Origin: Bispira polyomma
Taxonomy: Eukaryota
Direction of reading: 5' to 3'
Assembly (NCBI GenBank): GCA_965649765.1
Contig: OZ287751.1
Location: forward strand, 20,026,001 to 20,090,000
DNA length: 64,000 bases
The number at the start of each line of letters is the position of its first letter. Positions within the stretch are counted from its first letter, which is position 1. Shown here piece after piece: positions 1 to 50,845 of this stretch. Both the position numbers and the translations under genes were made by a program. The notes under the pieces are model-generated. The model was given only the letters and a program-made list of their open reading frames with translations. It searched no databases and was not told the origin of the DNA.

Positions 1-2110
1 ATTATTTTTTCAAATGGTTTTCTCAGAACTGAAAAAAAAAAAAAAAAAACCTTTACCATATACGTCTTATAATAGTTAAAGTTTTTTTATAGCATTTCAG
101 TTCATTCATACAAAAAGAAAAAAGTTTTTCATAATGTTTAAGCACAATTATAAAGAAATTATAGAGTTTCTCGTATTTCAGCCAGAATTTTACCAAGCAT
201 GTTTCCACCACTCCATTTTTCAGGATTCCAGATATTGTCATCAGTAAGAGAGATCCCAGCACCCCAGTATTTATCCCTGGGATTCGCTTCGATTAAGGTC
301 TTGTTTCCTGTATTCTTGAGGTATGTTGCCAACTCAGGATTTTGAGTGAATTTACCCCGGATACCTGCTTTCATTATAGAATCACACTCCCTTTTCCATG
401 TATCAACCTTGTAATTTCTTACTTTCCTACCCAGTGCTTTCACAGTAGCAAGTTCAGTTATTCTCAAAATTTCAGAAGCTGTGACATCATCACTAAAAAG
501 CTTTGCTTTATGGTACATCAGGAACTGTTCTACAGAAGAGAAAAGCAATTCATTTTGCTTAATGGAACAACTGAAGTGATTCGACAAAATTGAATGTCTC
601 ATGAAAAAGGCGATCTTGTTTCCTTCAGAAATAGTACTCAGATTGCTTGGCCTTAATTCCTCAGGTAAGGACTCAGTCTCATCAGTTGTATAAAGTTTGC
701 CATCTAGCAAAAGTTTGTCAACAACCAATCTGGCCTTATACTTTCCTGATATCCTGTTTACAGCTTGAAGAACTGGAGTGAAAAATCGACGTCTGGTAGC
801 TATCTCAGGGGGGAAGTCTTCCACAATCTTGACACCAACATCCTGGAATTTGGACCTTTCGTAAAACATCTTTTGTCTAGCTTTGAAGCTGAGAAATTTA
901 ACAATTATTGGGCGGTCGCCATATCCATAACTTGCAACTCTGTGTGCTCTTTCGATATCTGTACTACTGATGTTAATTCCATGTTCTGCACATAATCCCA
1001 AAATAATAGCTTCGCAGTCCTCTTTTTTCACAGTGTTGCGATCTGAACGGGAATCTTTGATGTTAAGGAATTTTAAGTTATTTCTCCTTGACACAACTTC
1101 CAATGACAGCAGCTTTTCTTCCATCTTTTGGCACCTAATTTTCTGTACAGAAAGTTCACTCTGTGTGTCTATTTGTTGTTTTTCCAATGATGACACTTTT
1201 CCGTCTATGTTTATCAATTCATCCAATTTATCCGTTGTAAATTGTAGTGAAGTCTTGACATTGTCTATCTCTAGCGATATAGGATCTAAACTAGCCCGTA
1301 ATTCTTGTTTTAGAAGAGCATGTATGTTGGCCATCGTGACCTGCATGTCGAGTGAGCCCGGAGACACTACCTCAAAATCTCTTTTCAAAAGTTTAGGGGT
1401 AGATTGAGATCCATCTTGTTTACGTTGTGAGTTTTTATTTGATGATGTAGGCATTTTTGCTCTATGATGATCTTTTTGGAAACTTTTGATGAATACCACT
1501 TATGTTCTTTCTAGATTATATGTGTTTCTATAAGACTCCTGTCTAAAAGCGCTAATTTGGTCTTTCTAAATATTTATCATAAATATTCTATGGAATCACT
1601 TCTGAGTGGGTGTTTAACGAAAGGCTCAGTTTCTGTTCATGTAAATAAACACAGATAATCCTTTCAGAGTCAATAAAACTTTAAAACACTTGTTAATAAA
1701 CACAAGTTATATTTATGTAGATAGTCATAGAATAAACTTGTAAACCAAATCAATTTATAAACTCATATTCTGTTCTTGTAATAGATCTTCTATTTTGTTG
1801 TTATTCTGTATTAATTCACACTTGTAAACTATCTTCCAAATTTTCTACTTGTGGAAGGTATTTTAGCTGAAACTAATTGCTAGAAAGTAATGTCAATCTG
1901 TATCTTCTACTGTACTACCGATAGCCATGTTGTTTTCACTGCTTCATTTGTAAATAATCAGACATGGGCTTATTATTGTATCCCCAAACAAAAGTTCGGA
2001 ATGCTACAGTTAAATGGTCCTGTCACACTGCCTTCTCCTAAATTTAATTTTGGACGCGATAAGTTTAAAATAGTTTAACCTGGAGCTTTTAAATTTGGTA
2101 TGTGGCTAAA
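1..2110 (-). mobile_element. 5' part of a putative L1/Tx1-clade LINE (5'UTR ~1500-2110, ORF1, start of a T-rich spacer); any ORF2 lies left of the window
   Basis: ORF1-type protein is intronless, with an A-rich leader on the minus strand and a U-rich tract after the stop. The 5' boundary is approximate, and no TSD can be tested. Confidence 0.55.
159..1499 (-). CDS. L1/Tx1-type non-LTR retrotransposon ORF1 protein (Transposase_22-like coiled coil + RRM + CTD) fused to a C-terminal NADAR (YbiA-like) domain; likely ATG at 1454 (431 aa)
   Basis: Uninterrupted 446-codon ORF. L1 ORF1p motifs: heptad-rich aa ~55-135, LEVVSRRNNLKFLNI, DIERAHRV, RPIIVKF, IVEDFPPEIATRRR. NADAR motifs in aa ~296-446 (nt ~614-162): FF..HSILSNH, SVEQFLMYHKAKLF, KALGRKVRNY, KFTQNPEL...L..TGNKTLIEANPRDKYWG, GGNMLGKILAEIRE. 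The ATG at 1454 is in an AAAAATG context. Confidence 0.9.
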   Translation of the reverse strand: MVFIKSFQKDHHRAKMPTSSNKNSQRKQDGSQSTPKLLKRDFEVVSPGSLDMQVTMANIHALLKQELRASLDPISLEIDNVKTSLQFTTDKLDELINIDGKVSSLEKQQIDTQSELSVQKIRCQKMEEKLLSLEVVSRRNNLKFLNIKDSRSDRNTVKKEDCEAIILGLCAEHGINISSTDIERAHRVASYGYGDRPIIVKFLSFKARQKMFYERSKFQDVGVKIVEDFPPEIATRRRFFTPVLQAVNRISGKYKARLVVDKLLLDGKLYTTDETESLPEELRPSNLSTISEGNKIAFFMRHSILSNHFSCSIKQNELLFSSVEQFLMYHKAKLFSDDVTASEILRITELATVKALGRKVRNYKVDTWKRECDSIMKAGIRGKFTQNPELATYLKNTGNKTLIEANPRDKYWGAGISLTDDNIWNPEKWSGGNMLGKILAEIRETL

Positions 2111-5856: not shown

Positions 5857-6154
5857 TACAGTTGAACCCCTTTAAGATACAGTTGAACCCCTTTAAGATA
5901 CAGTTGAACCCCTTCAAGATACAGTTGAACCCCTTTAAGATACAGTTGAACCTCTTTAAGATACAGTTGAACCCCTTTAAGATACACCTTTAAGATACAG
6001 TTGAACCCCTTTAAGATACAGTTGAACCCCTTCAAGATACAGTTGAACCCCTTTAAGATACAGTTGAACCTCTTTAAGATACAGTTGAACCCCTTTAAGA
6101 TACACCTTTAAGATACAGTTGAACCCCTTTAAGATACAGTTGAACCTCTTTAAG
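5857..6154 (+). repeat. 21-bp tandem repeat (TACAGTTGAACCCCTTTAAGA) with a 118-bp higher-order unit
   Basis: 13 full-length or near-full units plus two 13-bp truncated units. The variant order A-B-A-C-A-short is repeated at 5878-5995 and 5996-6113. Confidence 0.95.
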
Positions 6155-6593
6155 TCGAACCTTAAGGGACCAGGAGAAATACCTCTGCTTAAGCAGAATT
6201 TCCACTTAACAGGGTTGATTTGAAAGAAAAGACCTTTGTGGGACTTCAAATTTGTCTCCACATAACAGGGAAAATGACTTAACAGAGTTCTACTTAACAG
6301 GGTTCGACTGTAAACCTCAAGGGACCAGGAATAATACCTCTACTTGAGCAGGATTTCTACTTAACAGGGTAGATTTAAAAAAGAAAAGGCCTTCATGGGA
6401 CTTCAAATTTGTTTCCACATAACAGGGAAAATTACTTAACTGAGTACTACTTAAAGGGGTTCGACTGTACTTAACAGTAATTCTACTCAACCAGGTAAAT
6501 TTTCATTATAAATATGGCAATGAGACCTTAAATTAACTTCTACTTAACAGGTAATTCCACTTATATAGTTCTACTTAACATGGTTTAACTGTA
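6135..6593. mobile_element. Three tandem Tigger/pogo-like MITE copies or ends
   Basis: ~157-bp direct duplication (~6155-6312, ~6313-6469), each ending GGGTTCGACTGTA; a third piece ends GGTTTAACTGTA. The same family occurs at ~45709, ~47235 and ~59455. Confidence 0.75.
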
Positions 6594-19615: not shown

Positions 19616-20232
19616 ACTCAAATACATTGTTGTTGTGAAATCCTAATCAAATAGAGTTTTATGTCTTGTAAACTAACTAAATTAAACCTGCTCATTGTTG
19701 TGCATTTGTTGTTGATGTAATTGTGGCATTATATGGTCAAGTACACCTTCCCCTCAACCTAAACAATTAATGTAGGTTAGCCTTTGTTTCCATGTAACCA
19801 AACGGCCAATAGGCGATGGCCAGTGATAATGTTATCATTTCAAGGTGTTTCCATATATACCTGCCGCCGTTTTCAGGTAGCCAATACTGACCTATCATCA
19901 GATTGCCATTAGTAGCAACTGAATTGGTCAGTGTCGGCTAGCTGCTTAAAAACACCAGCTATAATGTTTGTAATGTTATCTTATATTATCAATTTTATAT
20001 ATATCTATTAAAATTATTAATAATTATATCAAATCTACAATAACTTATCCCTCTAAACACATTTGTATCGACTCACTTTTCTGCCTTAACATTTGTCTGT
20101 GATTGTCCAGGTTATTTAAAGTTTATACAGTCAAAAAGGAAATGAATGTTATTTTCAACGGATTAATCCACAGTCTATATTATGTGTACGCATGTATATG
20201 TATAAATATGTTAATATTATTATTTTTATCAG

Positions 20233-21103
20233 GGCTCCCAGCAGCAGGCCAGAGATGCCAGTGGTCAGTCCCACAGGCGAAACCAGCAGAAACCCTATCA
20301 ATCAGCCACATTGGATCACAGAACTCCCCCTACAGCTAAACCCAGTGCTGGCAGCAATCATGCTAGCACCACCCTACCCCACCACAGATCATCTAGGATA
20401 GCACAGCCAAGCACTGCCCCAGGAACAACAACCCCACCCTTGCTGCACAATGGAAACTTCCAAAGAAATTATCAACCTCAATTGGGGACACCTGCTGACC
20501 CTCCCCCTGGAGACAAGTCCAGATTGAATGCATTACAGGGTGGACAGCCAATAGAATCCCCTCCAGGGCCAGGAGATGCAGCAGATCATGTCCAGTGTCA
20601 GGATTCGTGGCCCATGTGTGTCAAAGAGAAGGTGATCGTACATATGAATGAGCCATCTAAGGAATCCCTAAGAGCCGGTGACTCTTACTTTTGTGTCAGG
20701 CAGAACGGTCAAGGTCGTGTGGATGTTGTGTTAAGACACATCAACCAGGGTAGTACTGGTGTCAAGGATTATACTCTCGAGCCAGACGGCAACACAAAAC
20801 ATGCAAAGATATTTGATACCCGTACTGGTATGGATCATAATAATAGTAATAGTACCACCACCACAGGATATGCTGTACCTCAGGATTTGCAACAGTGCAA
20901 CAGTGATGAGGAGTTAGTGACGTTGCTGTCTCAGTGTGTTGTAGCCGCAGAATGTGGATTAGAACGAATGACATGGGATCAGGTGAAGCTATCCAGGTTG
21001 AGGTCAGTGAGTGGTGGTGGAGGCAGAAACCGTGGTGGTGATGTAAGAGGTACATTAACTAATCAAATGTCAGGTCAAGGACACCAGCAAGTGAATGTTG
21101 ACG
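20233..21103 (+). CDS. PLEKHG4: ARHGEF40/PLEKHG4B-family RhoGEF, large coding exon (low-complexity insert + second half of the N-terminal domain)
   Basis: tttatcag|GGC...GACG|gtaagt, 871 nt, phase 0/1. DSWPMCVKEKVIVHMNEPSKESLRAGDSYFCV resembles ARHGEF40 [32 protein letters not shown]. Confidence 0.88.
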
Positions 21104-22595
21104 GTAAGTTCTCAAGGTTTACCTTCTCCAAATCAATACTGTGAATTTGACCTGTGATGGCCATGTTTGCAGGCTTTCTGTGTGGGGTAATGTTGGGTAG
21201 AGTAACTATACTATAGTTGGTCTTTGTTGACTTGAGGGTCTTCTTATTTTGATTTTTGCCATTTTTTTTCATTATCAAATGTGTTTTGTATCATTTACAT
21301 TACAAAATAATAATTGAACAGGTTTATATTAAAAACAACTGCTCCGATTTTCCTTAAGAACAGTATTTTTTAATGTGAAAAAGCCAATAAAGAAATGGTT
21401 AAAACCCGCTAATTTACGTAGTAGTCTGTAGTCACTGTTATGACTTCATGTCTTGAAGGATAAGTTTTAAATAAAATTTTTTGGATGTCATGAAACTTTA
21501 ACTAAGCATGATAATAGTCAAATACTGTACCTTAAGATTTCTCAGAAATTTCTTTTGCACAAATATGGATTATATTTTTATAATGACGCCAATAATACTA
21601 GTACAATGTACTTTGATTCATCATTTGGTTTACTGAAAATTTAATGTATCTCATGATGTCCTATAAAGGATCATGTCACATATTTTATTATAGTAATGGT
21701 ATATTATACTCCCAAACATGCCCACGGCTGGTTGCTACAAGATGACAGAGTATAGTTGTATTAATTGTTCCCACCTAGTCAGGCCTAATTTTGACAGGTA
21801 AATCATTACCTTAGGCATTTCTTATTTACCTTATCTTCCTTTGAGTAACCGAATACTGCTGAGATAGATGGTTCATTTGAGTCATACTTGGTAGTTGGGT
21901 ACTGGATTGTATGCTTGATTGATCTGAATACACAGCCAGCTACCTGATGTGAAACAGCTGCAGGAAAGTTTTGTTTTCAGTCTATAACTGCAGTAGCCTT
22001 TCTAAAGGCTATTTTTTTGTGTCTGGGTCAGAGTATTTACAAGACCGAGTTTTCTGTCCTCAACAAAGCTTTGATTTTTACAAAAATAGTACGCATGGCG
22101 AGGGACAGAGCGGTTATCATAAGCAAAACTTGACAAATCTTACACGGCAATTTACTATATACTATACAACGGGAAATTTACAGAAATATTTTCAAAATAC
22201 TGATATTGATGTAAATAAGTTCTTATAGGTTGGCCATAAGTTATAATATTGTGTACCACTATTGGATTAATAAAAAAACAACCACAGACTAAATGGCATG
22301 TGATGATAGTTTTTCTGTTCTAGGTGCAGTGTCAGATTTGTCGACTTTTGCTTATGGTAACCGCTCTGTCCCTCGTTGTGCATACCATTACCATCAGTTA
22401 ATCAAAGCTTAGTTGAAGACAAAAACTCGGTCAAAGTATTTACATGTGTTGGTTGGTACACAGTTTACGATCATGTGACATGGGTTTTGTGTTTATAAAT
22501 ATATTTCAAAAGAGACTGATTTTACTTTTTCGCTGTAATTCATGTGGGTCTGATATTTGTCATGGCTACACAAATTATATATAAGTATGTGATTC

Positions 22596-49848: not shown

Positions 49849-50287
49849 TAGTGTTATCTTTGCACTTAACACTAGAAAACTAAAAGTAGGCAGTCTTAAA
49901 TATTTTAGACATAAATGCTAGGTTTAAAAATAAGTTAATAAGTTAAGAGCTTAAGACCAAGATTTTTTCTGAGTCCCTTGACGCAGGCCGGATCTGGATC
50001 ACGGATCTGTAAAAGTTTGACACAAATAAAACCATGTGAGCATTCATATCAGGATCCGGACCAAATTTACACTGATTTTATTTCTAATTTATCGTATTGT
50101 AGGGTATCCGGATCCCTATTAAATACCTGCAACGTAGCTTGAAATTTCACATAATTCGGCCGGATTTTCTGTCCAATGTGAATAGGAAACAGATAATACC
50201 TGTTTTTGGATAATTTTACGGATCCAGATGCGGCCTGGTGTGTTTTTACCTTAAATCTATTTTTTGTGTGTGTATGTGTAATTCCAG

Positions 50288-50492
50288 TGAAGAAAGAAGA
50301 AGTCTTGGTCTGACCATCATAGTTGATGCCCAGGGTACCAGTCTAAGCACGCTGAATGTCCTCCTACAGACCCTGTACAACCTGGAAACCAGTCAGCCTC
50401 AGAGCATCCACATAGTACACGTGCTAGCTGACAGGGTGGCCCAGTCCTTACTCTTCAAGTCATCAGTCTTTAGACCGCAGATGAATATTAAG
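50288..50492 (+). CDS. PLEKHG4: RhoGEF exon, CRAL-TRIO/SEC14 domain core
   Basis: ttccag|T GAA...AAG|gtgagg, 205 nt, phase 2/0. EERRSLGLTIIVDAQ...IHIVHVL carries the GLT.IVD motif. Confidence 0.92.
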
Positions 50493-50845
50493 GTGAGGGG
50501 TTTGTTCGTAAAAAATTATAAATTAGCAAGAATGTCCGGCCACTTAAAATGGCTGTCCTCTCTCACTGGTCACTCTGTCATTGCTATATTAAAGTGCGGG
50601 TTCATTAGAAAAAGCGATGAATTGGCAAGAGTGTCAGGTTTGTTTTATCATCCCTACTGCAAACATGTACCTTGCAGGGATGTAATGATGGACTTCCATG
50701 TCTTCCTTTGTTTGTCTTACTCCCTCTGGGAACAGAATACTGCTCGGATTGCAATTATGAATTTATTAACATATAGTCACATCTGATTGCTAGTTAATCA
50801 AACTATACAAAGTATGTACCAGCCAACTTATTTGCCTTTCAGTAA

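Follow-up and report, generated by a model that had tools for sequence, protein, structure and literature searches.

The window, a stretch of 64,000 nucleotides (G000:C4:20026001–20090000) in the 1.035-Gb genome that was searched, contains at its left end part of a LINE copy that starts at window position 1837 and runs some 6,180 bases past the window's left edge. The features of this copy are:

1–158, minus strand: start of the AT-rich inter-ORF spacer, which continues left of the window
159–1454, minus strand: ORF1 of an L1/Tx1-type LINE, 431 aa plus stop, within the frame 159–1499
162–626, minus strand: NADAR domain of the YbiA (Glu) type, with the Pfam match spanning 162–596
639–1079, minus strand: RRM and CTD as in LINE-1 ORF1p (P0001 aa 126–272), from profile and Foldseek matches
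1089–1334, minus strand: predicted coiled coil of ORF1p (P0001 aa 41–122), a single long model helix with a match to the human ORF1p profile
1455–1837, minus strand: 5' UTR, with the copy starting at 1837
1838–1850, no strand: left target-site duplication, 9 bp when exact and 13 bp when a single mismatch is allowed
L031 6811–3049 (G000:C4:20023811–20020049), minus strand: ORF2 (endonuclease, RT), outside the window to its left

Four sibling copies share ~38 further upstream bases, indicating that this copy is slightly 5'-truncated. The partner of this target-site duplication comes after the poly(A) tail, some 6,170–6,180 bases beyond the window's left edge (L031 2820–2832), and the presence of both tail and duplication is as for an L1/Tx1-type LINE. 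The name Tx1, as against L1 proper, is our assumption and follows PMC12477816. ORF2 of this copy is broken by 6 stops and frameshifts, with AP endonuclease and RT matched in its pieces, and none of the family's 9 fetched copies has an intact ORF2; the intact ORF2 of a relative contains APE, RT and a C-terminal zinc-binding region, in which zf-RVT scored below its cut-off. The spacer between the ORFs is ~1.0 kb in the family; in this copy an insertion of 1.35 kb, bounded by 34-bp terminal inverted repeats, lengthens it to 2.35 kb. This non-coding inverted-repeat element lies at L031 7261–8640 (G000:C4), about 360–1,740 bases left of the window, and L048 contains a relative of ~85% identity. Unusually long inter-ORF spacers, of 0.7–2.0 kb with 25–30% GC, were also seen in L038, L044, L045, L046, L050, L122, L163, L166 and L171, and the sense strand of these nine spacers held no stop-free stretch >148 aa. 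At L120 2972–8956, an insertion 3' of ORF1 with long overlapping frames (1006, 800 and 647 aa) is likely another retroelement.

ORF1 lies in a minus-strand stop-to-stop frame at window 159–1499 that encodes 446 aa, or 431 aa counted from the ATG at 1454. Residue numbers such as E324 and D409 refer to the 446-aa frame, and P0001 denotes the 431-aa protein from the ATG. Four other close copies of this LINE have open ORF1 frames of 438–450 aa. The earlier note had placed a NADAR domain at 162–614, corresponding to aa 296–446 of the 446-aa frame. PF08719 (Pfam NADAR) matches aa 302–446 with an E-value of 3.6e-40 and 138 bits (cut-off 35), TIGR02464 matches the ORF1 protein with 121 bits (cut-off 73.7), and the NADAR part matches Phytophthora NADAR 8BAU (E 1.4e-14) and E. 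coli YbiA 2B3W (E 2.4e-6). A profile built from 63 ORF1 relatives detects human LINE-1 ORF1p (2YKP, E 1.3e-14; 2LDY, E 3.9e-10). The AlphaFold model of ORF1p, an alignment-based fold with a pLDDT of 91, consists of a long helix (pLDDT mostly >90), an RRM, a CTD and the NADAR domain, and its structural comparison with Foldseek returned 8BAU (E 4e-11, TM 0.76 on target) and human ORF1p 2YKQ (E 2.2e-6). These results confirm that 162–614 encodes a C-terminal NADAR domain on the L1-type ORF1p of a poly(A)-tailed L1/Tx1-type LINE. An Atlas look-up returned only NADAR clusters, at 0.83, which we take as no more than a lead, and scans of prokaryote genomes gave nothing. P0001 additionally matched the candidate anti-phage model PADLOC PDC-M42C with 136 bits and, weakly, NCBIfam NF053876 (47 bits, cut-off 240).

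The residues of the pocket were mapped by alignment to 8BAU onto the numbering of PMC11543638, with the chain number read as the paper's number + 2:

528–530, minus strand: E324, equivalent to Phytophthora E43, C7 E88 and AdfN E36, a distal-ribose contact
507–509, minus strand: K331, equivalent to Phytophthora K50, C7 K95 and AdfN K43, a pyrophosphate contact
288–290, minus strand: E404, equivalent to Phytophthora E125 and C7 D171, the last-strand catalytic acid that marks the YbiA type
264–275, minus strand: D409 and W412, equivalent to D130 and W133 in both Phytophthora NADAR and YbiA

The same alignment maps W368 to Phytophthora W89. E324 (codon 530–528) and D409 (codon 275–273) sit where they had been placed before, and this copy keeps E324, K331, E404, D409 and W412, with Cys at the equivalent of R93. 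NADAR types are told apart by their last-strand residue, which is Glu, Asp or His (PMC11125620); the Glu at this position (E404) assigns the domain to the YbiA type and sets it apart from DarG1, which has Asp, and from the phage enzyme, which has His. Last-strand Glu was found in 22 of 23 family representatives, and the exceptional copy has a sibling with Glu. The earlier note had proposed D409 as a control residue; D409 corresponds to D130, a water-mediated pyrophosphate contact, and the last-strand catalytic acid is E404. D409 is nonetheless a reasonable residue to mutate, as its equivalent Asp is among the SNA-3 residues that were mutated on the basis of YbiA (PMC9303266). The lysine is essential in C7 NADAR (K95; PMC11543638) and in phage AdfN (K43; PMC11257639). 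This domain is likely to hydrolyse N2-guanine ADP-ribose in vitro, as every tested NADAR with these residues does so on ssDNA and RNA.

The NADAR domain is retained in essentially every element of this genome that keeps ORF1, which makes the association nearly universal here. A NADAR query against the genome yielded 1,980 candidates, and all of the 150 that were scored matched. Among the 150 matches listed for a query with the middle part of ORF1, a NADAR domain lies downstream in 148: 101 adjoin a listed NADAR match, and the other 49, which were fetched, comprise 37 with a full domain, 10 with a partial domain and 2 with none. One of these two is internally deleted, and the other ends where the domain begins. 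An independent sample of 40 of the 150 endonuclease matches, hand-picked for long frames and spread, contained 27 loci with an upstream NADAR, 13 without any ORF1 trace and none with ORF1 alone; 12 of the 13 belong to families that carry NADAR and are truncated. Of the best 150 representatives from outside this genome, 87 are ORF1-fused. A search with P0160 for a host-type NADAR in the genome was dominated by element copies, with a best identity of 44%. Gastropod (Haliotis and Patella) host proteins with 2–7 tandem NADAR domains (P0062, P0065 and P0075) were also encountered and are named "uncharacterized".

The domain is under selection and the active site is intact in 18 of 23 families. Comparison of 16 families whose ORF1 is intact shows saturation at synonymous sites (pS 0.84), and identity is 0.47 in NADAR, 0.39 in the RRM and 0.27 in the coiled coil; the NADAR shows no excess divergence and forms, with the CTD, the most conserved part of ORF1. 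Of the 156 NADAR columns, 23 are kept in 22 or more of the 23 families, including E324, E404 and D409, compared with 9 of 155 RRM-CTD columns. At R79 and R93, two pyrophosphate contacts, most families vary or have lost the residue, a point against an eraser role. An outside set of 88 ORF1-fused domains, drawn from the 87 fused among the best 150 representatives, retains E43 in 87, E125 in 87 and K50 in 80. Non-ORF1 domains from that same search keep these three residues less often, which shows that the profile does not force residue conservation in the ORF1-fused set. The ORF1-NADAR fusion is real, selected and widespread.

ORF1 and NADAR behave as one unit. The NADAR and RRM-CTD trees of 14 families agree in supported clades that the RT tree splits, and forcing two ORF1 clades together on the RT data was rejected (p-AU 9e-4 and 6e-11), where the groups had been defined on the ORF1 trees with the RT tree already known and some ORF1–ORF2 pairings are represented by one or two copies only. 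Shared ORF1 and NADAR clades against a split RT tree show that ORF1 and NADAR move jointly between RT lineages. At L067–L069, L122, L128, L060 and L064, ORF1-NADAR cassettes of one clade precede RTs of three lineages, which indicates that families have exchanged ORF1. A fast tree of 184 domains sets the ORF1-fused NADARs largely apart, with 5 label changes compared with about 52–55 for shuffled labels, and the gastropod host multi-NADAR proteins fall among the non-ORF1 group. This tree, in which support at depth is low, suggests an old capture of NADAR by ORF1.

Five of the 23 families, which form a single clade (support 100/98), have L, I or Q in place of K331 and F or Y in place of W412. The domain is 57% identical between these families, and E324, E404 and D409 are still fixed. 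One of the five is the youngest of three families examined: 5 of its 13 copies have 0–2 private changes in 5.4 kb, and both ORFs are intact in 4 of the 13. This young LINE family (L214–L226; for example G000:C3:30974500–30981200) has a 403-aa ORF1 frame and a 1273-aa ORF2 frame, and its copies are up to 99.9% identical. Such near-identical, intact copies indicate that the family transposes without the lysine. In this clade the domain appears to have become either non-catalytic or compensated; either a basic neighbour (K325 or R330) may compensate for the lysine, or catalysis may be unneeded. Young intact families with and without the lysine in one genome constitute a natural experiment, in which L214–L226 is a natural control for activity.

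The fusion itself is already known. A C. gigas Tx1 LINE ORF1 and an Ectocarpus lineage IV Gypsy Pol carry a YbiA-family NADAR (PMC12477816, 2025), and the C. gigas element has the same ORF1 fusion in an L1/Tx1-type LINE with the same NADAR type. The one paragraph that PMC12477816 gives to the subject proposes RNA processing and contains no test of residues, selection or counter-defence; new relative to it are the near-universal retention, the cassette exchange between RT lineages and the clade that lacks the lysine. Among the open-access papers listed on NADAR with ORF1, Tx1 or retrotransposon ADP-ribosylation, only that paper was relevant and the counter-defence idea was not found. DarTG1, in which DarT1 is paired with the NADAR protein DarG1 (PMC11543638), shares the fold and the E43/E88 and K50/K95 residues, and the same chemistry is predicted, whereas DarG1 has a last-strand Asp and a linked ADP-ribosyltransferase (ART) and the domain described here has Glu, no ART in the element and an ORF1p fusion. 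A DarG1 (BC4488-type) antitoxin is ruled out by the last-strand Glu and by the lack of an adjoining DarT in nine spacers. Phage AdfN (gp30.3) and the NADARs of Bas32 and Bas60 are likewise orphan NADARs on genetic parasites, but AdfN differs in its last-strand His, its stand-alone form and its known host writer, DarT1 (PMC11257639); the Glu at this position excludes the gp30.3/AdfN type. The closest solved structures, Phytophthora NADAR (8BAU) and E. coli YbiA (2B3W), have a Glu-type site. Together with S. coelicolor SCO5665 and Amphimedon NADAR, they are active on guanine-ADPr, and those tested also on cytidine-ADPr (PMC12945103); all four are free-standing host enzymes, in contrast to the fused ORF1-NADAR. 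Human LINE-1 ORF1p (2YKO/2YKP) shares the coiled coil, RRM and CTD and is without the NADAR, and vertebrates are described as being without NADARs (PMC11125620, PMC11543638).

Our main reading, to which we assign a probability of roughly 0.45, is that the NADAR of ORF1p would be an eraser that removes ADP-ribose linked to bases (guanine, possibly cytidine) from the RNA or cDNA of its own element. L1 ORF1p trimers coat element RNA in cis, which would place the hydrolase on the RNA and at the site of target-primed reverse transcription. By coating the element RNA, ORF1p would bring a base-ADPr hydrolase along in many copies, and the NADAR could keep template and cDNA clear of marks that would block reverse transcription. 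Candidate writers of such marks are a CARP-1-like enzyme of the host, a PARP and a toxin of microbial origin. All four NADAR types, with a sponge enzyme among those tested, remove guanine-ADPr from DNA and RNA (PMC11125620, PMC12945103, PMC11833690), and phage NADARs counter DarT1 (PMC11257639), which is a proven precedent for counter-defence. YbiA and T4 NADAR hydrolyse guanine-ADPr in vitro without rescuing DarT1 toxicity (PMC11125620), and a failed DarT1 rescue would thus not be decisive against counter-defence.

The earlier note had interpreted the domain as an element-encoded counter-defence against host guanine ADP-ribosylation. Its background claims on pierisin and CARP-1, DarT1, NADAR reversal and phage carriage hold in the sources (PMC11543638, PMC11125620, PMC11257639, PMC11833690, PMC12945103), and the interpretation is partly supported as a reasonable, testable extension of a known fusion. 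The selected domain, the intact site in 18 of 23 families, the phage precedent and the CARP-1 homologues speak for it, but the last-strand residue is Glu rather than the DarT1-linked Asp and a clade that includes the youngest family examined lacks the lysine. In its most specific form, a CARP-1-like base ART would be a marine-invertebrate germline defence against LINEs that is answered by a cassette-swapped ORF1p NADAR eraser, which we consider doubtful. Such a system would be the animal counterpart of DarT1 versus phage AdfN, and the clade without the lysine would carry a binding decoy or a compensated site.

A search of the genome for a host base-modifying ART with PF22596, PF24494, PF02917, PF01375 and PF14487 gave no match above cut-off, with the controls also silent, which makes the negative uninformative; the best match of the DarT profile PF14487 had an E-value of 0.9, its controls being silent as well. 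CARP-1 (BAF03560.1) and ScARP share only 12% identity, and homologues of CARP-1, among them VDI51142.1 and XP_052704041.1, are on record from Mytilus, Magallana, Acropora, Holothuria and Oopsacas (mussel, oyster, coral, sea cucumber and sponge) (PMC12945103). CARP-1 is described as having no receptor-binding domain and as toxic only if delivered into cells (PMC11209040), which fits an intracellular role for CARP-1, the target not being named. Substitution spectra were compiled for three families with 13, 12 and 9 copies and 153, 179 and 448 private changes. None of the three had a strand-asymmetric excess of guanine transversions (all G tests p >0.14), in a comparison of low power that is weak because most changes arise post-insertion; the spectrum of the family lacking the lysine had A>T and A>G strand asymmetries with p-values of 0.011 and 0.048, among 18 tests. 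Phosphate-end ADPr, which animal PARP14 and TRPT1 make, is not removed by NADARs (PMC11833690), so that the marks known to be put on RNA ends by animal PARPs would not be the target.

Macrodomains were searched for with PF01661, which gave 41 matches in the genome. Each of the 41 is partial and sits in an open frame <150 aa, as would be expected of host exons, and none is an intronless macrodomain carried by a LINE. A macrodomain combined with a non-LTR retrotransposon was absent from the open-access literature searched. A cluster of exon-sized macrodomain matches at about 1.7–4.5 Mb of G000:C9 (L135, L138, L140–L142, L147 and L152–L160) is probably an expanded host macro-PARP-like gene family.

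The main alternative, though not the reading that we favour, is that the NADAR serves the element's own RNA handling, by binding, chaperoning, end processing or contact with a host RNA factor, catalytically or not and in the absence of any host attack. Near-total retention would be expected for a core part of ORF1p rather than for an arms-race accessory, the conservation of NADAR together with CTD and its lack of excess divergence point the same way, and the clade without the lysine, with the youngest family examined, retains the domain. Nematode SNA-3 NADARs act in trans-splicing, one of them without catalytic residues (PMC9303266), and RNA processing has been suggested for these fusions (PMC12477816). 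This explanation accounts less readily for E324, E404 and D409, which face the ADP-ribose pocket and are fixed even in the clade without the lysine, and no NADAR RNA-processing reaction is shown in the literature consulted. Human LINE-1 ORF1p, as represented by its structures, functions with the coiled coil, RRM and CTD alone.

It is improbable that the domain is an eraser directed against foreign writers, such as ScARP- or Scabin-like toxins of microbial symbionts or pathogens, protecting the element or the host cell where no host anti-transposon system exists. That role was proposed for the NADARs of sponge, coral and sea cucumber (PMC12945103), and host multi-NADAR proteins are carried by the gastropods Haliotis and Patella, but it is not obvious that germline-active elements encounter secreted microbial toxins with the frequency needed to fix the domain in all 23 families examined. 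Least probable of all is that the domain is a neutral passenger or that it works on small metabolites as an N-glycosidase of the YbiA/RibX type: the protein passes the cut-off of TIGR02464, a model of riboflavin-intermediate N-glycosidases, and has the YbiA-type Glu, but animals are not known to make riboflavin, and a passenger is ruled out by purifying selection and by retention across families whose synonymous sites are saturated. YbiA itself also removes guanine-ADPr (PMC11125620), and for that reason the "YbiA-type activity only" that the earlier note had set against counter-defence is not a clean alternative.

If the eraser reading is true, it would point to an endogenous ADP-ribosylation of bases in the retroelement nucleic acids of animals, of which the literature consulted holds no physiological case, and it would offer a possible purpose for the orphan clam enzyme CARP-1 and its relatives. 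If the domain instead serves RNA handling, a new NADAR function would be defined.

Elsewhere in the window, two open frames on the plus strand at 20215–21144 and 50214–50786 are possible host exons; a Pfam search of both gave no match. The frame at 50214–50786 may resemble the SEC14-like region of Rho GEFs. At about 5860–6340 lies a short tandem repeat whose unit is ~21 bp long.
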